64,000 nt of DNA from Candidatus Bathyarchaeota archaeon (GTDB taxonomy: Archaea; Thermoproteota; Bathyarchaeia; Bathyarchaeales; Bathycorpusculaceae), in assembly GCA_963720565.1 (NCBI GenBank), contig CAVRFW010000006.1, positions 25,944 through 89,943 on the forward strand, written 5' to 3'. Shown in pieces: positions 15,087-58,228 of this stretch. Position numbers and translations under genes: made by a program. The stretch's first letter is position 1, and each line of letters begins with the position of its first letter. A model generated the notes under the pieces. The model did not search any database and had not been told where the DNA came from. It saw only the letters and a program-made list of their open reading frames with translations.

Positions 15087-17327
15087 CTACGGCGAAGTAA
15101 TTACTCTGGTGTTGTACTCTTGCAGGTAGTTCAGGTGTTCTTGATCATATGGGTAGCTTTCTGTTGATGGATAAGGGAAGCCACTCATGTTGAGGAAGGG
15201 CAACGGGTCTACAGTCCAGTTGAATCCGTAACCCCAGTTTCCTGGTGGGTCCTTAAACCAGCAAGCGACGAACAGGAAGTAGTCTCTTTCCATGCCCTCT
15301 TCAAGTGGCGATAGGTTCTCGGTTGAGAACTTCATGGAGACTTTGTCACCTTGCATTCCGATTACGTACATGTCATCAGCTTCCAGAAGTAAGGGGGTTA
15401 CATCGCCATACTTGGTGAATGCTCCTGAGGCGGTCGACTTTGTGTCGCCGAAGCCAATCTGCTCCAGAACGGCGGTAGGGTTGATTCTCTGGATTATGAC
15501 GGCTTCTTGGGGAGAAGTGTCTATTGCTATGTAGTCGAAGGTTACATTCCAGTAATTGTTAATTCTGATTTGGTATTCGTTAACGTCTTCTGGGAAGATT
15601 CCTGTCAAGTCAACGACGAAACTTCTTGGAACATAATCCGAGGGTATGGGCATCGGCTTATCTTGGGAAACGCGCACCCAATGACCAGTTGAATTTTTAA
15701 CTTCCATGTAAGTAGACGGACAGAGTTGCGTGCCGCTTGGCACTAATCCTTCATCGAACGCTGCCTTAAAGCTGTCTATCCACTCGTAGTAGGGTTCAGC
15801 TTGACCCCAATCGACCATTCCGCGGACTACAAGTTTGATTTCTTGTGCACCAGATAAATCGCCAAGGTTCAATGTCAACTGATTCATTTTGATGTTATCC
15901 CAGGACGGACTGAGAAGCCCATTCAGTCCTGGTGTAAAAACGCCGTCAGGCTCTAGTATTTGACCCAAGACGTCCTCTCCTTTTTCATTGGTGGCTGAGA
16001 GTGGAGATGACAGGTCGTTTTTGCTTACGGAGTAGACTTGACCGTTGAAGAATTGGTTGACATAATTTACCATAGTTGTGTAGACATCCGTTCCAGCTGG
16101 GTGGTCAGCTACTATCAAATAAGCTGCATCAAGGTAGAATATTTCGTCCCATTGCTGAAACAGGACCAAATCATAATAGCCATCTCCGTCCACGTCTCTT
16201 GTCGCTAGCTGGTTTTTATCAAGTTTAACGAAGTCCCATGGGTTTCCGCCGCTGAATACGATATCGCCGTTTTCATCGATGTAATCGATGTAGCCTAGCC
16301 AGCCAGCATTTGAGACCTCGGTGACGTAGACATAATTTGTTCCATTCCAAAAATACAGAGAAGGACAAGATGCATATCCACTGATTAAAGTGTATGAGGC
16401 AACTACGATTAATCGGCTCTCCAGAGTTACCGTTGTCGTAGTGCTAGTAACGCCGTTGCTCCAATAGTCAAACTCGAACACGGCAGTGTCGGTTGTGAAT
16501 GGATTAGGCACTGTAAGAGTATACTGTCCAACAGGCATGAGAGCTGAATATGGAGTCTTATAGGTTTCTCCGTTTAAGGTGAAGGGCAGGGCGGTTGAGC
16601 CTCCTCCTGACCTGTTTACTGTTAGTGTGTGATAGCCTGTTTTCACTATTACAAAGCTCCCACTTAGGCTGTTTACTCTGACTGTGTGCTTTCCTTCGGT
16701 TGTCGCGTTTACCGTGAATGCCACTGTTGTGGTTTCTCCCACTGCTAACTCAATTCTTCTGTTTTCCACCAGCGAATCATCCACGAAAAGTTTAACCGAA
16801 AGGACGTCTGTTTCGGTTCCCGTGTTGCTGGCTACAACTGAGATGGTTATGGGTTCATCAACCCAGCCTTCATAGGGATTTGTAAGTAGGTTTGACAAGC
16901 GTATGCTACTTGCCGTTGGAGGTGCTTCTTTGATCAGGAATGAGCCAGTTAATCCGTCTATTTCAACCGTGTAGTTCCCTATGGCGGAAGCTAGATACAT
17001 GAATTCTACAATGGTTGAGGTGTGGTTACCGGCGAGTATGATTGTTTGGTTTTCAATCAGCACATTATTGATTGTAAGGTTAGCAATGTGGGTGCCCTCA
17101 AGGTCACCTATGTTGGTAACGTTGACCGAGAAGAAAGTTGGCTCACCTTCTTCAGCTTCAACCGGATTAATAGTGAGGTCAGTTACCTTGAATTCACTCG
17201 GTTTCAGTTCGGCAGCGATTAAGCCTTCATTCTGAAGATAAATGTAAGTCCCAGCAGCCACAGCTACGATTATTATGTCAATTATTAGAATCGCTTTCAT
17301 TTTGGTTATGCCTGAGCGGGACAGCAT
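15087..17327 (-). CDS. Large surface protein: N-terminal anchor, two CARDB/Ig-like domains, SCP-motif C-terminal domain
   Basis: RSG-ITKMKAILIIDIIIVAVAAG leader, NVTNIG and ASNTG Ig-like repeats, SCPSLYFWNG, and C-terminal PLPF...YP...EYNTR. ATG at 17327 preferred over the ORF-track start. Confidence 0.8.
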   Translation of the reverse strand: MLSRSGITKMKAILIIDIIIVAVAAGTYIYLQNEGLIAAELKPSEFKVTDLTINPVEAEEGEPTFFSVNVTNIGDLEGTHIANLTINNVLIENQTIILAGNHTSTIVEFMYLASAIGNYTVEIDGLTGSFLIKEAPPTASSIRLSNLLTNPYEGWVDEPITISVVASNTGTETDVLSVKLFVDDSLVENRRIELAVGETTTVAFTVNATTEGKHTVRVNSLSGSFVIVKTGYHTLTVNRSGGGSTALPFTLNGETYKTPYSALMPVGQYTLTVPNPFTTDTAVFEFDYWSNGVTSTTTTVTLESRLIVVASYTLISGYASCPSLYFWNGTNYVYVTEVSNAGWLGYIDYIDENGDIVFSGGNPWDFVKLDKNQLATRDVDGDGYYDLVLFQQWDEIFYLDAAYLIVADHPAGTDVYTTMVNYVNQFFNGQVYSVSKNDLSSPLSATNEKGEDVLGQILEPDGVFTPGLNGLLSPSWDNIKMNQLTLNLGDLSGAQEIKLVVRGMVDWGQAEPYYEWIDSFKAAFDEGLVPSGTQLCPSTYMEVKNSTGHWVRVSQDKPMPIPSDYVPRSFVVDLTGIFPEDVNEYQIRINNYWNVTFDYIAIDTSPQEAVIIQRINPTAVLEQIGFGDTKSTASGAFTKYGDVTPLLLEADDMYVIGMQGDKVSMKFSTENLSPLEEGMERDYFLFVACWFKDPPGNWGYGFNWTVDPLPFLNMSGFPYPSTESYPYDQEHLNYLQEYNTRVITSP

Positions 17328-17591
17328 GAACGTTCGCACTGACAGTAATTGAATCAACGAATATTTATTTGTAACCTTCCAAGATCTGCTTTGACGTTCT
17401 CTCTTCTCAGGAGAAAATGGTTGCTGGCAAACCTTTGACACGAGTATTAAAAAGACAAAGTCTATCCAGAGAGGGAGGTCTACTATCAGTAAATATCACA
17501 GAATATTTAGTCAATTGCTCTTTCAGCGTCAAGGTAAAGAAATGCTTATAGGGTATTGTTGTGGCTTAAAACTTCAGAAGCGCATTGTAAT

Positions 17592-29010: not shown

Positions 29011-31099
29011 CTATCTTTCTATAGAGATTTTGCTGATTCCAGCTTCTTTTTCAAGTGTTATTACGTGTTCAGCTTTTTCTGCGAAGACTTCGCTATGGGT
29101 TACCGCGATAATCTGTTCTATAGCTTTGAATCGAGAAATCGCTTCGGCCAAATGCTCGATACTGCCGTCTTCTCTGCCTAGGCTTTCAGTAGGCTCATCC
29201 AACAGCAACATGCTCAAGCCATGACCTGTCCGTGATTGCATGATGAGTTGACCTAAGCCTAAGCGATAAGCAAAAGCGAGCAACGTGCGCTCTCCACCAG
29301 AAAGGTTTGAGACTTCCCTTTCAACTCCGCTTTCGCTTTTCACGCAGGGCGTGTACGTTTCATCTATCATGACGTTCAACAGTGGTGCCTCCCCGCCAAC
29401 TAGACTGTCAAGCACTTGCTGCACGAAGTTCCTAAGCACTTTCACGAATTCACTGCGCAGTTTAGGCTGTATGCTTCTGTACGCATCACGGATTCCGCCC
29501 AAAATCTCAAGAGTCTTGGAGATTTTTTGAATTCGTTCAAACTTTTCTTGAGCATTGTCTATCCTATCTTTGGTCTCGTCTAAACGTTTGAGAAGATCTT
29601 TCTTGCGGTTTTCTCTGAGTCGCAAGTCAGATTCCAAATGAGAATACTGCTGGAATGCTTGTCTGCTTTGTTCCCGTGCGGCTTCGAGATCCGATGAATC
29701 GAATCTGCCAATCTCAAAACGCAAATCATCAAGCTGCGTTTGCAGTTCTGCTGCAAGACGCTGTTTTGCCTCATATTCGGCGGACAAATCGTTCATAGAT
29801 TTCTCTTCTTCGTTTATTCGAACTTTCAGGTCTTCATTTCGCGCAGTAAGAGTAGGCAGGTTCGAGCATGCTTCGAAGGCTACAGCTTTGACTCGTTGTA
29901 CCTCTTCAAGTTCACTTCTTAATTGTTTGAGGACTTTTTGCCTGTCTACATTTTCTTCTTCGATCCTCTGGACTAAACCATTCTTGTATTCTTCATTCAA
30001 CGATTGCAGGCAAAGTGGACAACGGTTTTCGGCGGAAAGAGACTTGGTTCTTTTTTGATCAACTTGCATGTTTTGAAGAATAGCTTCTTGCTCGGCTTTC
30101 AGGTTGGAGATTCGATCATCAAGGGTTGCCAAATGCTGCTGCAGTTTTTCTATTTGCTGGTTTGGCTGTATTCCAACTTCCTCAAGAAGCCTATGGCTTG
30201 CTTTGATCTGTATGTTAATTGAGCTTTGTCGTTGTTTGAGGTTTTCGATGATTGTCTTTTTTCCCTCAATTCTTTGAGTCAGAGATGCCGATGCATCTAT
30301 CGTGTTTGTTATGTTCGTTTGGACTTTTGCTTCGCGCCTCTTTAGGTCGTCGATTAAAAGCTTCTTTTCTTCGAGCTTCTTGAGCTTTGCATCTGCGTCC
30401 TCCAGCACTCTTCTTGCCCTGGCTACTTTTTCGACGGCCCCCTGCAGCTCAATCTCCAGGACGGTGAACTCTTCGGTAATACGGTTGTGCTCATTGCTAG
30501 AGTTTCTCCAGACTGACCACGTCTGGATCTTTCTCGTATACTCTCTTTTCTGTTTCGTATTCGCGCTGGTACTCGGCTATGCTGCTCCACGCAGTTTCGT
30601 AATCCGATAGCCCGAATAACTCGTCCAAACGCCTTTGCCTTTCCCGGGGTGCTGAATCGATAAGTTCTTTCAAATGCTCCTGCCTAACCCAGATGATTTC
30701 GCGGTAAAGGTCCCTGTCCACCCCCGTTATGGCCTTAAACTGTTCGGACACAGCGTCAGTCTTCATGCTTGCCATCAAGGTTTCATCTTGGAAGAGTTTC
30801 AGCTCTTCCAGGTCTTGGCTTATGCCTTTGGAGCGTCTTTTTAGCCCACGAGTTAGCTTGTAGGTGTTCCCGTTGTGAGTAAACTGAACTGTCACTTTTC
30901 CGGAATCTGCGCCTTCACGCAGCAGATACTCAAAGCTCCTGCCGATTGGCTCTCCGAAAAGAGCAAAGTCGATGGAGTATAGAACGCTGGATTTTCCGCA
31001 GCCTAAACCGCCCACTAAACAATTAAAACCCCTTGTAAATGGCACCGTGGATTTGACATGTGAGCGGATGTTTTCAAGCTGAACGATCTCGATTTTCAA
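29011..31099 (-). CDS. rad50: Rad50/SbcC ATPase, frameshift near 30499
   Basis: NIRSH, GGLGCGKSS, zinc hook CPLC, LSGGE, LLDEPT and VTH. Removing one base at CTCTAGCAATGAG joins the two ORFs into about 695 aa. Confidence 0.9.
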
Positions 31100-33622: not shown

Positions 33623-34058
33623 TTTTCGCCAATCAATCCGTGCTCTGTCATTTTAAGGTGACTACCTTAGGAATTTAAGCGGCACATAAAAACCTATCGA
33701 CCGACAAAATGTCGTATCAACCCAGATTTCCAAGATGGTTGAACCAGTTCTAGCTTGTGCAAAATTCACCCGTGTTCTGTTCACAAAATGGCTAGTGTAT
33801 TTCCAGCAACTTTGCGCCGCTTATCGTAATTACACCTGATTTTATTTGCATAACGGCAAGAGTGATATAAGATGGAAACCTGAATCATGATTTTCTTCTT
33901 CCACCAGTCAATATGGATGGAAAGGATTCAGAGGCTGCTTTGCGTCTTGTGAGTTAAGAGTTCCAATTTGAGGTCGCCCAACAGGTTTTAAATATTGTTT
34001 GAAATTCATATAGCACGCTGTACACAGGATTGTGTGTTATTGTTATAGGCGAGAAAGG

Positions 34059-36461
34059 ATGAGCCGAAATGGAACTGTCTTGGCGATTGCTTTGCTTCTA
34101 ACTTTGGCTATTGCAGAGTCTTTGGTTGCGATCCCACGCGTTGAGGCGGTTGATGTTGGAACCAGGGCTTTCCTCTCTGTTGCGCCAAACCCTGTCGGTG
34201 TTGGCCAAAAAGTTCAGGTTACAATATGGGTGAATCCTATTGTGCCTACGGCAGGAGAAGTATTTCACGGTTTCACGGTCGACATTACCAGGCCTGACGG
34301 AACCACAGAAACTAAAGGACCGATGGACTCTTTCGTGATGGGGGGAGTATTCTTTGAGTATACGCCCAATGCCACGGGAATTTACAGATTAGTGTTCAAG
34401 TATCTGGGACAGACAGTTTCCACAGGTGACGATTATTTGCCCTCCGAGTCTCCGGCTGCAGAACTCACAGTACGGCAAGAACCAACTCCATCATTGCCTG
34501 AGAGCCCGATTCCGACCGATTACTGGACACGGCCAATAAACAGTGAAAATAGGGGTTGGGCTTCAATCGCGGGCAACTGGTTGATGCTCGGCTACAACTC
34601 CACTTACAGCATGGGCTTTGGCGACTCGACTTCGGGGTTTAATCCGTACACGCAGGCCCCGAGATCTGCTCATGTAATGTGGACAAAGGAATTAGCTTTG
34701 GGAGGACTAGTAGGGGGGGAACTTGACTCCTTCGGGTATTATACTGGTCAATCCTATGATCCTTACTTCGCTCCTCCGATAATATTGAACGGCAGAATAT
34801 ACTACAGAATGGGCAAGAGCGGATGGTTGGGACAGGGATACTACCCAGGCTTTGTCTGTGTTGACTTACGCTCCGGAGAGGAGTATTGGAGAAACGAAGA
34901 AGGGTATATTGATCTGGCTCAAATCACGAAATCCTCTTCGTTTGATGGGCAAGGAGGGATACCTTACCTCTGGGATGTGACAGGGTCAACTTGGGATGTG
35001 TACGACCCTTTCACCGGGAAATGGGCTTTCGCTTTTGACGGAGCAGTTTCCGGCTTGGATTTTGGGAGCAAGTGGTGGCCTGATGCGATTACTCTGGACA
35101 GTGAGGGAAAGCTTGAAGTTTTCATTCTCAATGGAAAAGCAAACTGGCTTGCCAAGTGGTCACAAGCCAAGGCTGAGAAAGAAAATGTAATGTATTTTAT
35201 TGGGCAGCTGCCAGACACCTACGATTGGAAGCTCGGCGTCGAATGGAACGTCACAATTCCAAACAGGCAGGCTGCAGATCCATTGGGCAACATTGTTGGA
35301 CCAGTAAAGCAAGTTTTAACGGGTAACGTGTTGATAGCAAAAGTGACTGATGGCGGTAACTGGGTCAAGTATGAGGTTGCCTACAGCCTAACCACAGGAG
35401 AAGAACTCTGGGTCAACGAAAACCCGGTGCAGACGTGGTTTTGCGTCGCTGGAGATGGAGTCTACGCTTCCTTCAGCTACTCAGAGATGAGGTGGACCGG
35501 GTATGATGCCCAAACAGGAATTCAACTATGGATAAGTGACCTAAACTCGTACCCCTGGGGAAGCTATGTAAGCTACGCTCCAGCCATTGCACGCGGAAAG
35601 CTGTATTCGGGGTCCTTTGATGGGTACATGCACGCTTTCGACATTAAAACGGGCAAGGAAGTCTGGAAAGCCGGAGGCGGAGTTAACCCTGAAATCGGGG
35701 TTGGAATTTGGCCCATGTGGTCTGGCCCCATCATCGGCGGCAACATTGTTTTTTGCGGCAACGGCGAAGAAACCCCAACTCAGCCCCTGTCCAAAGGAAA
35801 CAGGATATTCGCGTTCGACGCTGAAACCGGAGAAGAAATTTGGAGCATGGGCGGGTACATGAGTCTGAGAGCTATAGCAGACGGCTATCTGGTAGGATAC
35901 AATGGATATGACAATCGAATCTACTGTTTCGGGAAGGGACCAAGCGCTACAACAGTAACAGCGTCGCCTAAAGTCACTCTTAGAGGAGCCGGCGTGTTGA
36001 TTGAAGGCACAGTTACTGACCAGTCAATAGGTACGAAGAATACTCCAGCCATTGGGGATGAATATATGAGCGAGTGGATGGAGCATGTTCACATGCAGAA
36101 GCCTTGTCCAGAAAACGTGGAAGGCGTAGAAGTAGTTTTAACTGCTATTGACCCTAACGGTAACCTGCAGGAAATCGGGAGGGTCAAGAGTGATTCAAGT
36201 GGATTGTTCAAAAAGTTGTTCACCCCAGATACCCCGGGGGAATACGTTATCACGGCAACCTTCAAGGGGTCAGAATCCTACGGCAGTTCTCGCGCGACAA
36301 CAGCTGTTGGAGTGTTAGGCGCGTCTTCAAATGGAGATCAATCAGACTCTTTCTTTGAATTTAAGCTGTACATAATCGTCGCTACAGCAGCAATTATCGC
36401 GGCCATAGCAATAGTTGGATGGTTATTGCTGAGGAAAAGTCGGATGACAACACGTGATTAG
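34059..36461 (+). CDS. Secreted, C-terminally anchored PQQ-like beta-propeller protein with Ig-like domains
   Basis: Signal peptide, repeated [DS]xxTGxxxW motifs and a C-terminal TM helix with basic tail. Confidence 0.85.
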   Translation: MSRNGTVLAIALLLTLAIAESLVAIPRVEAVDVGTRAFLSVAPNPVGVGQKVQVTIWVNPIVPTAGEVFHGFTVDITRPDGTTETKGPMDSFVMGGVFFEYTPNATGIYRLVFKYLGQTVSTGDDYLPSESPAAELTVRQEPTPSLPESPIPTDYWTRPINSENRGWASIAGNWLMLGYNSTYSMGFGDSTSGFNPYTQAPRSAHVMWTKELALGGLVGGELDSFGYYTGQSYDPYFAPPIILNGRIYYRMGKSGWLGQGYYPGFVCVDLRSGEEYWRNEEGYIDLAQITKSSSFDGQGGIPYLWDVTGSTWDVYDPFTGKWAFAFDGAVSGLDFGSKWWPDAITLDSEGKLEVFILNGKANWLAKWSQAKAEKENVMYFIGQLPDTYDWKLGVEWNVTIPNRQAADPLGNIVGPVKQVLTGNVLIAKVTDGGNWVKYEVAYSLTTGEELWVNENPVQTWFCVAGDGVYASFSYSEMRWTGYDAQTGIQLWISDLNSYPWGSYVSYAPAIARGKLYSGSFDGYMHAFDIKTGKEVWKAGGGVNPEIGVGIWPMWSGPIIGGNIVFCGNGEETPTQPLSKGNRIFAFDAETGEEIWSMGGYMSLRAIADGYLVGYNGYDNRIYCFGKGPSATTVTASPKVTLRGAGVLIEGTVTDQSIGTKNTPAIGDEYMSEWMEHVHMQKPCPENVEGVEVVLTAIDPNGNLQEIGRVKSDSSGLFKKLFTPDTPGEYVITATFKGSESYGSSRATTAVGVLGASSNGDQSDSFFEFKLYIIVATAAIIAAIAIVGWLLLRKSRMTTRD

Positions 36462-49041: not shown

Positions 49042-51346
49042 TTATGTCTCGTAGTTTGATAGTTTCTTCTGTTTCTGTCCCTTGATTGCGTCGTAAACTG
49101 ATTCGGTCGTGTAGTCTGCAAAGCTCAAAAGGCTGGCCCCAGAGGCATAGAGCAAAAGCAGATATTTCTTGATGTCGGGGTTCACACCTTTCTCTATGAG
49201 TTGTGCTGCTTTAACTCTGCGGTCATAGCGTTTGTCTTTGGCATGAGTGAAAAGGAAGCGTACATTGTTTCCCGCGTGTATTTGGGCGCCTTCCTTTATG
49301 AGTTGCTCGGCAGCTATGACTTGGCTGACGTGTTGCCTATAACGCTTCGGGTTTTTTGACATATGTTTTGTGACTATTAGGTCCCAGAGAGGTACCTGGC
49401 CGTCCAGCAGTTTTCGCCGATATTTTTTAACAATTTCTAGGGCGTCAGGAATTTTTTTGTACAGTTCACTGGTGTTGTTTGCGGAAGCTAGGGTTTTTAT
49501 CATTTCTGTTTGGGCTTCAAACACGAAGTGTGGTGTGTCTCTACGGCGAATTTCTAAGCCGCGGACTTTGATTTTTCCGTTTTCCATTACACCGTAATAC
49601 CGGTTCAATACGCCCACGCGTGGATGCATTTTCGAAGGCAAAAAAACTATCCATTTATAGCGTCCCTCAAATGTTATGGGCACTCCAACTTGCTCCGTTA
49701 TTGTTTTGCACAATGTATTGTATTCTTCGAGTACTAGCGTCTCGTTTCTTTAGCCATAGAGAATCAACGATGCCGTGGACCACCTCAAATCCATATTTCT
49801 CAGCCTTGTGTGCTGCCTTCAATAGGGCTTCTCTGCCGAAAGCACAGACGCCCATGTGACCGTCAACTGTGCCGAACTTTGCATTCCGATAGCCCAAATA
49901 GCCGAAACAAGTGACTAAAATCCACTTCAGTGCGGCCTGGCGTCTGTCGTAAACTTCCTTAAGCTGTGGATCGTCTGTTTGGTCCTTCATACGTTTGTAG
50001 AACAAGCGTTTATCTACGATCAGCCTTAGGGTTTTGGGGACTATGCCTTCCCGTTTCGTGCATATATTGTAGTTCAGGTCTGGGATTCGTGAAGTCGAGT
50101 TTGGGCAGCATTCACAGAGAACGGTTTCTGCCGATATGTTGTTGTCCACCATCAAAACAGGGTACATCGAAGAAAAATCAATTTCGCCCACAAAGTCGTG
50201 AGCTCCTACTCGTGGTTCGAAGACTATGCCGCCTCGGTCGCCTACGAGCAGTTCGTAGGCGGTTTTGAAGGCTTCAGGGATGCTCTTGTTCCGGGGAATT
50301 AGCACATCGTCTTTAATCGCCTGATAAAACTGGAGTGAAGACATGCTTGAGCCTATGGAGTTGCGGGCAGCGGTGTGTAGGGGTACGCGGCATGTTCTGG
50401 CGACTTCTATTAGACCTTCGAATCCGGCTTCAGATAAGATGAACGTGTTGTTTTCGTCGATGTGTATTCTGCCGTAGAGTCGAATGGCTCCGGCTCTGTA
50501 GAACGTACGACCGTAGGAGAAGAATGTTTTTCCTGAAGGGGGTTTCGGCGAGAAAGGTGTTTTGTCTCGGCTCAGGATGAATTCGCTCAGGACATTATTA
50601 AGGGTGGCTCGTTGTGTGAGGTAGGGGAAAAGATAGGAGTCGCCGCCTTGGGTTATTATGATGTCTGGGTCAAGTTCTTTGACGACTTTGGCGATTTGAA
50701 GTATTTTTTCTGCTTCCTCGTCTGAATCGATGCATATTTCTTTCTGGTTTTGAGTTATGCAAACTGAGGATATGGAGTCTTGGAAATTGGGTATTTTTCC
50801 TTTTTTGTCGATTTCCACTCTCAGCTTCATCACTCGCAACTCTGGAACAGCATAATCTGTGCTGGTTGCCGAATCTAGGAGTGTATAGTGCAGTCCTGTC
50901 TCTTCTGTTCGGATGTCTACAAACGCCAAAGGGAAAATGTCGTGGCTGAAGAAGTAGGCACGATCTCCTTTCAAATCGCAGTTGTGGATCTCATAATTCA
51001 GATAGTCACCTAATCTCAGAATGTTGAGAGTGAGAGATTGTGTTTTTCTACAGTCTTTCAGCGTAAGCTCTAAGACTCTGGATTTCATGGCGTCTGTGGG
51101 GTGCGCGTACTTGTACGCGAAATTCCATGAGGATAGTATGCTGTTGTTACAGAGTCGGCTGACTAAGCGTTCTATTTCATCCTGCTTGGCTGAAACGTAA
51201 ATTTTGGGTTGGAAATTATCTGCGAGTTTTATTCTTTCGCCGTTTTCGGTTATGATCCAAACGGCGATTTTGCCGGGGCCGGAAGGGTAAGCGTCAAGTA
51301 TCCAGCCTCTAACATGGTCTGGAGCTACCTGTGTTTTTGACTGCAT
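49042..51346 (-). CDS. polB2: Family B DNA polymerase, PolB2 group, frameshift near 49733
   Basis: DRGG, DFSSMYP, KWILVTCFGYLG, altered motif C HGIVDS, and KVRGLEIRRRD in the second ORF. Confidence 0.9.
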
Positions 51347-53750: not shown

Positions 53751-54086
53751 ATGAAAAAAAGTGGAGACGAGGAGAAGATTAAGCACGTTCTAACCGACCC
53801 GAGACTTTCAGCGATAAAGACTATGCTTGAGAAGGACCACGCTATAGATTGCCTCTTCTTGCTGTACGTTGGCCGTGGGAAATGGAAGGAAGCAAAGGAT
53901 TTCATGCGCAAAAACAAACTGACGCTGAGCGATGGCACTTTCAGGGCGCGGATGATTGAGATCGAAGAGTTGGGCTTGGCTAAGAGCGAACGGATTGATC
54001 CGTTGAAGAAGTATTATTTGAAGACGGAGTTGGGTGAGAAGGTCGCGAAGCTTCTTCTTGGATTCTTTGACGAATTCGGTGCTTAG
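53751..54086 (+). CDS. Winged-helix DNA-binding protein
   Basis: LSDGTFRARMIEIEELGL...YYLKTELGEKVA. Confidence 0.8.
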   Translation: MKKSGDEEKIKHVLTDPRLSAIKTMLEKDHAIDCLFLLYVGRGKWKEAKDFMRKNKLTLSDGTFRARMIEIEELGLAKSERIDPLKKYYLKTELGEKVAKLLLGFFDEFGA

Positions 54087-54286
54087 TCTTAGCCGGCGCA
54101 TTGGCGCTTGAGTGTTGCACAGTTTCTTTTTCAACGTTTCTTTAAACTTGATTTTGTTTGGTCATCTGTGGTTTTTGTGTAGTTGTGTTTTACACATAAT
54201 GAATATGGTGTAGTAAGTCATAAGATTTAAATGGGTAATTTCGTCTAACATACTCGTTAATCCCAAAAGGAGGGATAAAAGAGAAA

Positions 54287-54713
54287 ATGAAAACACTAAG
54301 AAAAATAAGAAAAAGCACAAAAGCCCTTAGCCCCGTAGTCGCATCAATCATACTCATCGCAGTCACCGTCGCAGTCAGCATCGCAGTAGCCGCATGGATG
54401 GGAGCACTAACCGTCGGATTCATGGGAACAGAAGAACTCAAAATCACAAGCATGACTTTCACTGGTCAAACAGCATAACTATTGGTCGCCAACAACACAG
54501 GAACATCTCCAGTAACAATCAATGAAGTGTGGGTAAACAATTCACCAATTGCAGCAGCGTAGTGTTACTGGCGACGGGACGAATCAATATCTGCAAACTC
54601 AGGACAACAATTCGTTATAACCACTGCTGTAACTGACGGCTACAACTATCAAGTCAAGCTCGTCTCAACCAAAGGCAACACTTTCATGTACACTGCAGTC
54701 GCTCCAGCATTAA
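54287..54713 (+). CDS. Type IV pilin/archaellin-like protein, interrupted in this sequence
   Basis: Class III signal RKSTKA/LSPVVASIILIAVTVAV. After TAA (54476) and TAG (54560) the same frame resumes with NNTGTSPVTINEVWVN and YNYQVKLVSTKGNTF. Confidence 0.85.
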
Positions 54714-54815
54714 ATTCCCCCATTATCTTTACGTTAGAAATCGAGGGGTAGGGTGAAAAAAATCACTCTCAATTTCCCTTTCTCTTAGTTTCCTCTTTGG
54801 AGGTGCAAAAACAAA

Positions 54816-55244
54816 ATGGTAGTACAAATAAAAGAATATGGATCAGCTGAAAATATAGCCGAAACCTTAGACAAGGAAATAGCCGAAACCAAGAGCACGT
54901 TAGGCGAATACTTGCGAAGGCTAGACGAAATTCGCAACTTGGCGGAGAAATCAAAGAAGATCCGCGAAGTAGTAATGAAACTAGCTGGAAAAGCAAAAGC
55001 AGGCAGCGAAGGCCTAGGCGAAATCAACGTCGGAAGCCTAAACATCATACTAGACGCTAACCCATTCCACGAATTAACAGCGATAGAATCCGTTGTTCGC
55101 AGCCACCAGGAACGCCTACTCGTCCTCCAGAAGGCACGTGAAGCTCTTAAATGGCTAGATCAACTCGGCGATACTGAAGGCTTGAAATACTTAGTGGTTG
55201 AAAGCGAAGGAGTCCCAGAACGCATTCTGTTCAAGATCTCCTAA
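54816..55244 (+). CDS. Hypothetical helical-hairpin/coiled-coil protein
   Basis: 142 aa: two long helices around a beta hairpin; strong GGAGGTG ribosome-binding site. Confidence 0.8.
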   Translation: MVVQIKEYGSAENIAETLDKEIAETKSTLGEYLRRLDEIRNLAEKSKKIREVVMKLAGKAKAGSEGLGEINVGSLNIILDANPFHELTAIESVVRSHQERLLVLQKAREALKWLDQLGDTEGLKYLVVESEGVPERILFKIS

Positions 55245-55285
55245 ACGCTGGACACCACGAAAGACCATGAAGGAGCCATTAAGAC

Positions 55286-56195
55286 ATGAGTAATCAAGTA
55301 TACGCTTTGGCGCTCGATAACACGCTGCGAGAAATCAAGAACGTTTGCCCAGATGTGACTAGCATCTTCGTCTTCGAAGAAAACTCGCAAACCATCGCCA
55401 AAGACGACGACACAACCCAGGAAACCATAAACAAAACCGTAGACGCATTCCAAGCTATCAAATCAAAATCAGAAACCTCAGGCGGCTTAGAAGCGGTAAC
55501 CATACAAGGCTCCGAAGGTCGAGTAAACATAGCCTCCATCAACAACTTTTATTTAGCAACCGTCACTTCGAAAGAAGCTGACGAAAAATTCGTAAACTCA
55601 TTAACCCGCATTCTGATTCCTACAGTCGTCAAAATCGTCGATCAAATCCAGCCTGCCCCCACAAGAAGCGACGAACCAACCATGACCGCAGAACTCGAAC
55701 TCGTACAGGAATCAATACAAGAGCCCATACAAGAACCCGTTGAATACGCCTACCAAGAAGAGGCCGTTGAAGAAGCTGAACATACCGAACAACCTGAAGA
55801 AGAAATGCCGACCGTTGAAGAAACCGTTGCAGAAGAACTTGATTGAATCCGTCCAAGAAGTTCAGGCTGACAATGTTGAGGAAAATGGTCTGGTGCTTCC
55901 GGAACCTCCTGTAACTCAAGTGATTGTTGAGAGTCTTGGACGTTTGCAGTTCAAGTCAGACACGGTTCGCGTCGACAACTCAGTTATTGAACAGTGGAAA
56001 GATCTTTACGGTGACAGGATAATCGAGGAAGTTGAGCTGGATGCTCTGAACGGGAAAACAATAAGGTGCAAATTCAGTCCGATTAAGGATTCGAAATATC
56101 AGGGAAAAGGCGTGATCCAAATACCCGATAAGATCCAGGCTGCAATGGAAACCAGTAAAGGCAAGCTTGTGATGGTAAAACCGGTGGTTGAGTAG
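55286..56195 (+). CDS. Roadblock/LC7-like domain + acidic linker + Cdc48N-like beta-barrel, frameshift near 55840
   Basis: N-terminal alpha-beta-beta-alpha-beta-beta-beta-alpha pattern, Glu/Pro-rich linker, C-terminal DTVRVD...GVIQIPDKIQ...GKLVMVKP. Removing one T fuses the two ORFs. Confidence 0.65.
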
Positions 56196-56206
56196 AAAGA
56201 GGGAAA

Positions 56207-56623
56207 ATGATGGCTAAGAAAAAGAAAAGCATGAACGAAACTGCTGATACAGTATTCGCTGAAGAAAGCGCCCCGATAGTAGAGGCAGTAGAGGAAAAAC
56301 AGGTTTCCCAGGATTTGGCTACTCGCTTGTCAAAAATGTGCGAACGGCCAGGAGTCTTAGGCTTCATACTGCGAGATGCAACCACCGCAACGATAAACCT
56401 TAAAGAACCCGAGAAAATTGTCGATTATGCCCTCTTGACATCTCAGACGCTGGAATCAAGCCAAGAAATTAGTCAAATGTTCAACCTAGGCGATTTCGAG
56501 AGCACGCTAATTGAAGGAAAAAACATGAAAACGCTCTGCTTTGTTCTCGATGAGAATAGAGTAAACATATTCATGGAAAAAGATGTAGACCACGCAGACA
56601 TACTAAACAGCGTTAGGCAATAA
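56207..56623 (+). CDS. Roadblock/LC7 domain protein
   Basis: PGVLGFIL...YALL...FNLGDFESTLIEGK...LCF pattern. Confidence 0.75.
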   Translation: MMAKKKKSMNETADTVFAEESAPIVEAVEEKQVSQDLATRLSKMCERPGVLGFILRDATTATINLKEPEKIVDYALLTSQTLESSQEISQMFNLGDFESTLIEGKNMKTLCFVLDENRVNIFMEKDVDHADILNSVRQ

Positions 56624-56660
56624 CAAGATAAACGCTACCAAGACTTGCAAATCCCGCCTT

Positions 56661-56876
56661 TTAAGGCGTTGTTAAATCCAACAATTTTTGAAAAGCCTTA
56701 TTGATTTTAGCTTTTCCGTTTTCAAAATCAACCTTTGCAAACTCATACTTGTCTAAGAACGAAAGAATCTCTTCCATCTCCCGACCATCTAGGCTCGATT
56801 TCCTGCTTAGTCCTGCAATGCTATGCCACTTTCCGTCACTAAGCAGGTCCAGAATCATCGAGATCTTGGAAGCCAA
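56661..56876 (-). CDS. Small winged-helix protein
   Basis: ILDLLSDGKWHSIAGLSRK...ILSFLDKYEF. Confidence 0.7.
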   Translation of the reverse strand: MASKISMILDLLSDGKWHSIAGLSRKSSLDGREMEEILSFLDKYEFAKVDFENGKAKINKAFQKLLDLTTP

Positions 56877-57147
56877 AGGTCGTTTCTCCTAACCATCCTT
56901 TGTTGTCGCAGTACTTAAATGCCTTATGAGATTATCATTTAGAATACTGCTATAGAAAAAACCCCAAGTTTATCCACCCAAAGCTAGATAGGCAACCGAC
57001 TAGAAATTTATCATCTTTTTGCCTTTGCTGTCGTATTCCATGAAGGTAGAAAGCATAAAAGAGAAAAAGAAGACACATAAAGCATTAAGATACAGCATAC
57101 GTTTACAGGTGTCTCAAGAGAGCAGGACAGATAGGAAGAAAGAGAAG

Positions 57148-58228
57148 ATGCATAAGAAACTATTGATTCCGGGTCCCACAGAAGTAAGCCAAACCATACT
57201 TCAAGAGCAAACCCATCCATTGATAGGTCACAGAAGCAAAGAATTCTCTGAGCTTTACGCTGGAATAACTGGAAAAATCTGCCAAGTACTTTGAATTGCC
57301 CGCAGATTGCAAACCGACCGTTACTACGTCTTCAGGTACCCTATGGTTTGACATCGTAGGCAGAAGCATCGTGAAAAATAAAGCCCTTGCATGCACCAAC
57401 GGAGCTTTCTCGCAGCGATTCTCTCAGACAATTCAAGCCTGCGGCAAACAGGCTGACGTCATAGAAGTGGAGTGGGGCAAAGCCGTGAAGCCGGATATGA
57501 TAGCGGAAAAGCTCGAATCAGGCAAATACGACACGCTAACCATATGCCACAACGAGTCTTCAACGGGGGTACGCAACCCGATCCATGAGATTGGAAAAAT
57601 AGTGCGCAAAGACTATCCTGACGTTATGCTTGCTATCGACAGCGTCTCAGCCATGGCGGGAGATAAAACACTTCCCGAGGAAATCGGCTGCGACATCATC
57701 TTTGCTTCAACACAAAAATGCTTCGCGCTGCCTCCGGGGTTGGCTGTCGGTTTGGTCCATGATAGAGCATTGGAAAGGGCTAGAGAAGTTCCCAACCGAG
57801 GTTGCTACACAGATCTTCTGGAGATTTTCGAGTTCGAAAAGAAGAACCAGACGCCTTTCACACCGTGCATTCCACTGTTGTACGCTTTGAACAAGCGCAT
57901 GGATTTGCTGCTTGAAGAAACCTATGAAGCTGTTTATCAAAGGCACAAAGATATGGCAAAGTACACGCAGCAATGGGCTAAAAACCATTTTGCGATGTTT
58001 TCTGAACCCGGCTACGAATCAATCACTGTGAGCTGCATCCAGAATACAATAGGAAAGAGCGTGAAAGAACTTAACGCGAAACTTGGAGAACGAGGATACA
58101 CCATTTCCAACGGTTACGGAAAATTAGCGGAGAAAACCTTCCGCATAGGCCATATGGGCGAATGGAACCTCGCAGCAATTAAAGAAGTCCTAGCTAACAT
58201 CGACGACATCTGGGGGCTCAAAAACTAA
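57148..58228 (+). CDS. Class V PLP aminotransferase (serine/alanine-glyoxylate type), frameshift near 57282
   Basis: LLIPGPTEV...IGHRS, HNESSTG, DSVS, STQKCFALPPG and FRIGHMG. Confidence 0.9.

Follow-up and report, generated by a model that had tools for sequence, protein, structure and literature searches.

A conserved pilin and Roadblock gene cassette in one order of Bathyarchaeia and its probable association with a type IV pilus motor

Introduction

A stretch of 64,000 nucleotides from the genome of a Candidatus Bathyarchaeota archaeon (GenBank assembly GCA_963720565.1, contig CAVRFW010000006.1, positions 25,944 to 89,943; called the window below, whose numbering is used throughout) holds a compact group of genes for a pilin-like protein, a helical hairpin protein and two Roadblock-like proteins, together with genes for small proteins of a predicted winged helix-turn-helix (wHTH) type. 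We refer to this group as the cassette. An initial annotation had read it as an undescribed archaeal module for polarity, pilus control or cytoskeleton adaptation that uses a Roadblock heterodimer. Bathyarchaeia rank with the most abundant uncultured archaea of sediments, and we know of no account of how their surface filaments are built or controlled. What is understood of Roadblock proteins concerns them almost exclusively as partners of small GTPases, and one of them, MglB, governs type IV pilus polarity in Myxococcus. Here we describe the cassette, its conservation in related genomes and its probable tie to one pilus motor.

Results

The cassette comprises seven reading frames at 53751-56876, at the place given by the initial annotation, in a source genome of 2.09 Mb that is distributed over 13 contigs and 88.8% complete. 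All frames except the last are on the forward strand. The first (53751-54086) is an open reading frame (ORF) for a wHTH-like protein of 111 amino acids (aa), which we predict to be the transcription regulator of the cassette. A promoter element of 31 bases, AATATGGTGTAGTAAGTCATAAGATTTAAAT, follows on the same strand at 54202-54232; its end, TTTAAAT, is TATA-like, and the pilin start codon lies 54 bases downstream. The type IV pilin-like gene itself (54287-54751), which is broken in this copy, joins a class III signal peptide to a beta-rich domain. Next comes an ORF (54816-55244) for a protein of 142 aa from an unnamed family, modelled with AlphaFold2 as a helical hairpin with short beta elements. 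At 55286-56195 lie a Roadblock domain, an acidic disordered linker and a double-psi beta-barrel, spread over two frames (55286-55846, 186 aa, and 55838-56195). A second Roadblock/LC7-like protein of 138 aa (56207-56623), recognized by profiles, is the predicted dimer partner of the first. The group is closed on the reverse strand by an ORF for a convergent small wHTH-like protein of 71 aa (56661-56876). Pfam gave only sub-threshold matches for the window's own seven proteins, and neither a pilus ATPase nor a GTPase was found among the ORFs of the window. The remainder of the window is ordinary chromosome, with genes for RNA polymerase, ribosomal proteins, pyruvate:ferredoxin oxidoreductase, DNA ligase and enolase.

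Gene orders and the counts out of 98 given below come from 98 related Bathyarchaeia loci, made up of 18 fetched neighbourhoods and 80 public loci found with the hairpin protein. Nearly all of these loci keep the order wHTH-like gene, pilin, hairpin, Roadblock-barrel, Roadblock, which recurs wherever the contig reaches, and a homologue of the convergent wHTH-like gene occupies the same place in 68 of them. A search with the second Roadblock protein matched 31 of 41 related genomes, among them 22 of the 24 in the family (the window's genome excluded) and members of several sister families. Identity across the order is 71-96% for the hairpin protein (62 relatives) and 63-94% for the wHTH-like protein (46 relatives), and 24-60% for the pilin and Roadblock proteins. 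The flanks of the cassette are variable and hold housekeeping genes. Such an arrangement is far beyond chance. The initial annotation had listed a wHTH gene, a pilin, a helical hairpin protein, a Roadblock-linker-barrel protein, a second Roadblock protein and a convergent wHTH gene, and it had made its reading depend on their co-location in related genomes; both the list and the co-location hold up across the 98 loci. In relatives, stretches of the cassette are also covered by contigs from the RNA libraries of four studies, among them the hairpin/Roadblock and barrel/Roadblock junctions; this is weak support, as DNA can be present in such libraries. Depth of these contigs is high over the conserved 5' part of the pilin gene, but depth cannot rank genes and many organisms contribute to it, and we claim no level of expression from it.

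The genes, their order and the Roadblock and barrel folds of the initial annotation stand, but it did not mention that two of the genes are interrupted, and its first wHTH gene is without profile support. The pilin frame, whose 3' end is shifted, is interrupted by TAA (54476-54478) and TAG (54560-54562); its read-through translation can be aligned with relatives past both stops. A 1-base frameshift near 55839 places the Roadblock and barrel parts in different frames, and in 92 of 94 relatives' loci the two form a single ORF (median 279 aa). We compared the window with close-strain contigs (in most cases 90-99% alike) that came from four public DNA runs (X1, X2, X3 and X5). At 54477 the X1 contig has T instead of A, turning TAA into TTA; one base fewer is present at each of 54558, 54575 and 54580 in X1, X3 and X5, and at 55839 in X1, X2 and X5; and two extra bases at 54709/54710 in close-strain contigs shorten the pilin by 13 codons to the end seen in relatives. 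Together, these differences abolish both pilin stops and fuse the Roadblock and barrel frames. Contigs from RNA libraries (X15, X18 and X19) differ from the window in the same way and likewise carry unbroken versions. None of the public runs held at least half of the sampled words of the stretch, the best reaching 0.39.

Because the close-strain contigs are free of the breaks, these are either assembly errors or very recent damage. Splits also affect several housekeeping genes of the window, namely those for a family B DNA polymerase (559 + 223 aa, 49042-51346, reverse strand), a Rad50-like SMC_N protein (200 + 465 aa, 29011-31099, reverse strand) and a class V aminotransferase (91 + 310 aa, 57019-58228, forward strand), and for this reason we read the breaks, as far as sequence comparison can tell, as the work of an error-prone assembly in preference to decay. 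The pilus ATPase to which the cassette appears to be linked (see below) is also split (101 + 389 aa, contig C5 285042-286686). One might instead regard the cassette of this genome as a decaying remnant, a set of pseudogenes of a pilus system that is being lost, given the two stops and shifted end of the pilin, the frameshifted fusion gene and the motor ATPase in two pieces, and given also that the cassette and its ATPase occur in only part of genus g17 and that one relative (G009) has a degraded copy. The split housekeeping genes, the unbroken versions in both DNA and RNA runs of close strains, and the otherwise undegraded frames, in which all residues beyond the breaks align with relatives, speak against this, and we regard decay as somewhat unlikely.

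In the AlphaFold2 model of an intact fusion protein from the same genus, the first Roadblock domain has helices at residues 2-20, 45-63 and 101-122 and strands at 24-31, 36-39, 71-75, 79-86 and 89-96, which is the alpha-beta-beta-alpha-beta-beta-beta sandwich of Roadblock/LC7 with an additional C-terminal helix. Foldseek matched it to Roadblock structures from Streptomyces (3kye) and Prometheoarchaeum (9jue), to MP1/p14 and to MglB, with TM-scores of 0.62-0.76 overall; 3kye, 9jue, 1veu and 6hjm lie at 0.68-0.76, with E about 1e-5. As a whole, the model of this homologue (predicted local distance difference test, pLDDT, 81.6) shows the N-terminal domain, a disordered acidic linker of ~85 residues and the C-terminal barrel. 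Foldseek matched the barrel to the VCP-like double-psi beta-barrels 7dg9, 7dbo and 7dg7 (TM 0.77-0.81), with designed proteins reaching 0.86, and its profile matched double-psi beta-barrel designs in the PDB (E 4.7e-5). Within the fusion family, Pfam recognizes CDC48_N (PF02359) in 15 of 80 members and Robl_LC7 in four (best E 8.5e-5). As the fusion protein ends with the barrel and AAA+ modules are absent, it is a relative of the Cdc48/VAT AAA+ unfoldases in this domain only.

The second Roadblock protein was identified by profiles. The window's copy matches Pfam Robl_LC7 with E 0.002, 44 of 84 family members match at E <= 0.01 (best 4e-6), and its profile matches the PDB Roadblock chains 7yh1 (E 0.005) and 3l7h (E 0.008). 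Aligned with hhalign, the two Roadblock families are colinear over 95 columns (E 0.0015). The window's Roadblock copies score 13.8 and 18.3 bits, under the gathering cut-off of 23 bits for Robl_LC7 (PF03259), and on sequence grounds we class both proteins as divergent members of Roadblock/LC7. The Roadblock folds of the initial annotation are thus upheld, for the first protein by modelled structure and structure search, for the second by profiles. Its proposed heterodimer also emerges from complex modelling: three runs gave interface scores (ipSAE) of 0.84, 0.84 and 0.85, the best control reaching 0.01. Of 157 solved complexes 116 attain this mark, and of 215 mismatched pairs two do. At least 99% of contacts are shared between the runs, and the pLDDT of the partner, the second Roadblock, is at least 86. 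The modelled interface is the canonical one, formed by helix 2 and strand 3 of both chains, with residues 47-60 and 60-80 of the first chain facing 70-89 and 91-109 of the second. The two Roadblock domains are therefore predicted to pair as a heterodimer.

We assign the hairpin protein to no named fold. Its AlphaFold2 model, of moderate confidence (pLDDT 70.5), consists of a strand, a 47-residue helix, a hairpin, a 35-residue helix and a further hairpin. Foldseek returned no match at E <= 0.001; the best row is prefoldin subunit 6 (E 0.13, TM 0.61), and the window's copy has no match to a Pfam prefoldin family. VIA-align over 48,161 chains retrieved generic helical hairpins only (Z <= 8.9), and an assignment to YlqD, suggested by language-model features (Atlas) at 0.81, was under the lead threshold and was rejected. 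Members of the extended family have no Pfam domain either. The family is small, with 243 representatives among 1.84 billion proteins. Among 300 sampled genomes of the phylum, 26 in other classes hold a full-length homologue (most with E 1e-13 to 4e-26, two weaker), and none was found in the samples from other orders of Bathyarchaeia.

At 18 loci of such distant homologues, family hidden Markov models detected no Roadblock partner, and 17 of the 18 had no pilin or Roadblock match. Pilus genes (T2SSF, or T2SSE with a pilin) adjoin the homologue at three of them: at L130 and L142 it lies directly beside a T2SSF gene that is followed by pilin-like genes, and at L140 between a pilin and a T2SSE ATPase gene. 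Seven distant homologues (L131, L133, L134, L139, L140, L143 and L146, from other classes of the phylum) are neighbours of large secreted proteins (459-1242 aa) that contain beta-propeller or CarboxypepD_reg domains, and those of the f19 group stand between the genes for succinyl-CoA synthetase and pyrophosphatase. A 310-aa neighbour of the L131 homologue was considered as a relative of the Roadblock-barrel protein and dismissed (hhalign E 0.13).

Class III signal peptides consist of a short basic leader, a cleavage motif and a hydrophobic N-terminal helix, and, read by this rule, the pilin has all three. In relatives the pilins are intact proteins of ~140 aa with an invariant KALSPVVASIILIAVTVAVS stretch. 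Their N-terminus (MKTLRKIRKSTKA/LSPVVASIILIAVTVAVS) shows no variation between K12 and S31 across 40 relatives and includes an unchanging K-A-L-S-P-V followed by the hydrophobic stretch, whereas the outer domain is variable. The window's pilin scores 14.7 bits against Pilin_N (PF07790; E 0.056), under the cut-off of 25.2 bits, and eight of 40 relatives match at E <= 0.01 (best 3.6e-4).

Upstream of the pilin genes the promoter element is nearly invariant, and its core is present with at most four substitutions in 71 of 84 pilin loci. A matrix built from the pilin sites alone was run over both strands of the whole genome (4.18 million positions) and found only three sites of at least 10 bits, the next best scoring 9.6. 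The top site, with 50.8 bits, is the pilin promoter. The second (37.6 bits) precedes a gene for a 578-aa protein on contig C13, and the third (22.9 bits) lies 67 bases upstream of the start of a type IV pilus motor ATPase on contig C5, the C5-type ATPase in what follows. This ATPase variant of the element also precedes the orthologous ATPase in four relatives (G012, G030, G040 and G295), with 13.9-18.6 bits, and no further site of at least 8 bits was found at these four ATPase loci besides pilin promoters. The 578-aa protein (contig C13 65915-67747; locus L154 916-2748) is a lysine- and arginine-rich coiled coil without a Pfam match. We dropped it as a conserved member of the system: with paralogues it is present in 51 of 201 genomes and does not track the cassette, and five orthologous loci are without the promoter element. 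Distant paralogues of it lie divergent to the C5-type ATPase in three genomes (G006, G441 and G453), and in G190 the distance to this ATPase is 6 kb. As for the pilin promoter itself, a second copy of the word TGTGTAGT is found ~30 bases upstream of the 31-base element (54160-54200), adjoining a TGTG-TTTTA-CACA palindrome; both are kept in several relatives and, judged from these bases, may form a second operator half-site.

The initial annotation had pointed to pilus ATPases elsewhere in the genome as something to look for, and two T2SSE ATPases (122 and 115 bits) were indeed found there. The genome holds two type IV pilus-like loci and a single A24 prepilin peptidase (Peptidase_A24, 49.2 bits); T2SSF homologues, assigned by their likeness to T2SSF-positive proteins, lie beside both ATPases. 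Besides the ATPase and T2SSF, the C5 motor locus has the peptidase and five pilin-like genes (161-937 aa). It contains no small pilin and keeps its order in G012 and G040.

It is this ATPase that tracks the cassette. Of 200 genomes sampled evenly across the class, with the C5-type ATPase called at E <= 1e-160, 32 hold both the hairpin protein and the ATPase, two the ATPase only, 166 neither and none the hairpin protein alone, and all holders belong to one order. Within genus g17 the split is five with both, five with neither and one with the ATPase only. Among 40 relatives (ATPase orthologues at >= 72% identity), 25 have both, two the ATPase only, five the cassette only and eight neither; four of the five cassette-only genomes are less than 77% complete, and the fifth (G009) has the degraded copy. 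The genome's other ATPase type shows no such tracking of the cassette. In G030 and G295, which belong to one genus, the cassette is placed divergent to the operon of the C5-type ATPase and T2SSF. In G030 (L028 8530-9927), as read by eye, the wHTH-like gene is separated from the pilin by two inserted toxin-antitoxin-like pairs, with PIN-domain-like proteins of 133 and 151 aa and small partners of 71 and 88 aa.

The first wHTH-like gene lies upstream of the pilin in every locus whose flank reaches that far, and its protein has a mean column identity of 73% across 46 relatives. The window's copy has no Pfam or PDB profile match (best PDB profile E 0.59). Its identity and its predicted fold come solely from language-model features, by which it is close to an Atlas cluster with HxlR in 65% of members (0.93) and to one with WHD_ArnR1 in 13% (0.91). 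Pfam EarA matches two of 47 family members (E 0.005). We rejected a designation as EarA, as the EarA model does not match the gene in its own genome, and also a relationship to the convergent wHTH-like protein (hhalign probability 7%). The family of the convergent protein matches several wHTH families of Pfam, each in 2-5 of 38 members (best HTH_IclR, 2.6e-6), and the window's copy has no Pfam match at E 0.01. Of the two wHTH genes with which the initial annotation had bracketed the cassette, the convergent one thus has scattered Pfam support, but the first has no profile match at all. A further small wHTH gene (HTH_45, Pfam E 1.4e-19) lies on the same strand directly 3' of the second Roadblock gene in 49 of the 98 loci and is not present in the window; in those loci it is followed by genes for an inositol monophosphatase, a metallophosphoesterase and HSP20.

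Elsewhere in the window there are two large surface-type proteins, one of 809 aa with a PQQ-like propeller and Ig-like domains (34032-36461, forward strand) and one of 784 aa with CARDB (15087-17441, reverse strand).

Discussion

Our data make it somewhat probable that the cassette is the fibre-gene unit of the C5-type type IV pilus in one order of Bathyarchaeia, and that its trio of cytoplasmic proteins, the hairpin protein and the two Roadblock proteins, acts without a small GTPase. This reading builds on the conserved gene order, the folds of the fusion protein, the co-presence with the ATPase, the neighbourhood of cassette and motor in one genus, and the rare promoter element that they have in common. 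Because of the joint presence and the promoter element shared with the motor, the cassette is likely a control or assembly kit for this pilus. With regard to the functions that the initial annotation had considered, pilus control gains support from co-occurrence, neighbourhood and promoter; our data give no support to a role in cell polarity, as a cytoskeleton adaptor or as a GTPase-type switch.

Together, these observations suggest a model. The wHTH-like protein likely drives the promoter element that the pilin gene has in common with the distant motor operon. Since the motor locus holds only large pilin-like genes, the pilin of 140 aa would be the major subunit. The hairpin protein likely joins with the predicted Roadblock heterodimer, in which an acidic tether links one subunit to a Cdc48-type barrel, in an accessory complex; this complex would control or assist pilus assembly without a small GTPase, presumably by acting on the motor, the platform protein or the prepilin. 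In a more specific version, the GTPase-free heterodimer, with the hairpin protein as scaffold, would dock on the PilB/ArlI-type motor or its platform, and the barrel would seize the basic leader of the prepilin or the tail of the motor. We put this version forward as a speculation that is rather unlikely to be correct. If true, it would amount to a novel type of gate in the assembly of archaeal pili and would place Roadblock scaffolds on an NTPase that is not a GTPase.

Several points weigh against the proposed link to the pilus. Common ancestry means that the joint presence of cassette and ATPase overstates the number of independent cases, as outside g17 the comparison is mostly between one order and the rest. 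Two genomes (G099 and G330) hold the ATPase without the hairpin protein, and G009, which is 94% complete, holds the cassette without the ATPase, although its copy looks degraded. A pilus ATPase or T2SSF gene lies within 5 kb of the cassette in only one of the 98 loci (L028), to which G295 adds a second case; elsewhere the neighbours of the cassette are housekeeping genes. Distant hairpin homologues are not beside pilus genes at 15 of 18 loci. Contact between the three cytoplasmic proteins and the motor, platform or pilin, and binding of the wHTH-like protein to the 31-base element, are parts of the model that we infer. The score of the Roadblock pair may reflect likeness to solved Roadblock dimers. 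Moreover, the pilin, the fusion gene and the motor ATPase all look broken in the genome studied here, and this particular copy may not work.

Three other explanations of the cassette have to be weighed. The cassette could be a unit for transcriptional signalling, in which the hairpin protein and the Roadblock pair would detect a cue and retain or free the wHTH-like regulator by partner switching, so that the trio controls no more than expression of the pilin and motor operons. Such a role would suit the bracketing of the cassette by two wHTH-like genes, the HTH_45 gene that is added as a third on the same strand in 49 loci, the unusual conservation of both the promoter element and the wHTH-like protein, and the position of the wHTH-like gene between both promoters in G030 and G295. 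However, contacts among the wHTH-like, hairpin and Roadblock proteins would have to be assumed, a Cdc48-type barrel on a long acidic tether would resemble an arm for grabbing peptides or partners rather than a sensor, and distant hairpin homologues occur directly beside T2SSF. On balance we find this explanation unlikely.

A different assignment of the pilin would turn the arrangement around. In archaella, ArlF and ArlG serve as membrane anchor or stator, and by analogy the pilin-like protein of the cassette could tether the cytoplasmic trio to the membrane while the fibre is made from the large pilin-like proteins of the motor locus. The invariant N-terminal helix next to a varying outer domain is in keeping with an anchor, as are the five pilin-like genes that the motor locus has of its own. 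Yet its size of ~140 aa, the variability of its outer domain and a strong promoter of its own would seem to suit a major pilin better, and a cleaved pilin leaves almost nothing in the cytoplasm to which soluble proteins could be tethered. An anchor or stator function is thus quite unlikely in our opinion, and we continue to favor the pilin as the subunit of the fibre.

The initial annotation had remarked that no GTPase gene is visible at the locus, and the searches made beyond the window agree with this. Models for Ras (best 17.3 bits), Arf (17.0) and Roc (22.3) gave no match over their curated cut-offs anywhere in the 88.8%-complete genome, and the best match of each lies in a long ORF of 442-748 aa; among the 32 commonest clusters of flanking genes at the 98 loci, GTPase families were also absent. 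A switch of the MglA/MglB or Rag/Ragulator kind, in which the Roadblock pair regulates a small GTPase encoded at a distance and sets polarity or pilus placement, would agree with the fold matches to MglB, MP1/p14 and Asgard Roadblock structures, with the predicted dimer via the canonical interface and with the control of pilus polarity by MglB in Myxococcus, but the negative searches of the 89%-complete genome, the window's ORFs and the commonest flank clusters make it very improbable.

The preferred reading, a fibre-gene unit whose Roadblock proteins work without a small GTPase, is of interest beyond this group of archaea. It offers a concrete and testable case of GTPase-free Roadblock function, as the pair appears to be tied to a pilus motor and no small GTPase was found in the searches described above. 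The 31-base element and the adjacent gene for a nearly invariant wHTH-like protein provide a ready pair for studying promoter activation in archaea. Each of the five proteins is small and either soluble or easy to truncate, which makes in vitro tests of the predictions possible without cultivation.

Roadblock genes have been noted near archaeal pilus genes before. Makarova, Koonin and Albers (2016) state that Roadblock proteins belonging to arCOG02603 frequently have their genes in archaeal type IV pilus loci, and 16 rows of their Supplementary Table S4 list single Roadblock genes of ~115-127 aa from methanogens and a few Crenarchaeota (PMC4858521). We found no published description of the present cassette in the literature beyond this statement. 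The word "undescribed" in the initial annotation can therefore be kept for the cassette as such, but not for the presence of Roadblock genes in archaeal pilus loci. Compared by the description in PMC4858521, the two groups have in common small Roadblock-fold proteins that occur with archaeal pilus genes and no GTPase partner stated there; the cassette differs from these 16 rows in having two Roadblock genes, one of them fused to a double-psi barrel, and in its fixed association with a pilin, a hairpin and a wHTH-like gene away from the motor.

As to the regulator, ArnR has a membrane segment, which the wHTH-like protein of the cassette does not have. EarA of Methanococcus and Pyrococcus and ArnR/ArnR1 of Sulfolobus are activators of archaellum and pilus operons (PMC5512572, PMC10665913, PMC6396743); the protein of the cassette likely works as they do, as a small wHTH protein that serves the promoter of a type IV filament operon.

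The barrel has the fold of the N-terminal double-psi barrel of Cdc48, VAT and VCP (TM 0.77-0.86; PDB 7dg9, 7dbo, 7dg7). Unlike in the Cdc48 family, it is attached singly to a Roadblock protein, and both the second subdomain of the N-terminal region and any AAA+ module are missing.

MP1/p14 (LAMTOR3/LAMTOR2) of Ragulator and the Asgard Roadblock proteins (1veu, 3cpt, 9jue, 7yh1, 7f8m) are among the best fold matches of the cassette's Roadblock domains (TM 0.64-0.76), with weak profile matches in addition, and share with them the Roadblock heterodimer that is predicted here and that in Ragulator is a scaffold. In contrast to Ragulator, the cassette has neither Rag GTPases nor a wrapping protein like LAMTOR1, although the hairpin protein might take such a part.

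From the MglA/MglB system of Myxococcus xanthus the cassette's genome differs in that no MglA-like GTPase was detected in the assembled sequence with the Ras, Arf and Roc models. MglB itself (PDB 6hjm, 6h5b, 6izw) has the same Roadblock fold with an extra C-terminal helix (TM 0.62-0.69), a link to type IV pili, and a dimer of the kind predicted here via helix 2 and strand 3. Sequence identity to MglB is 10-12%, and the dimer of the cassette would be a heterodimer of two diverged paralogues, one of which carries the double-psi barrel.

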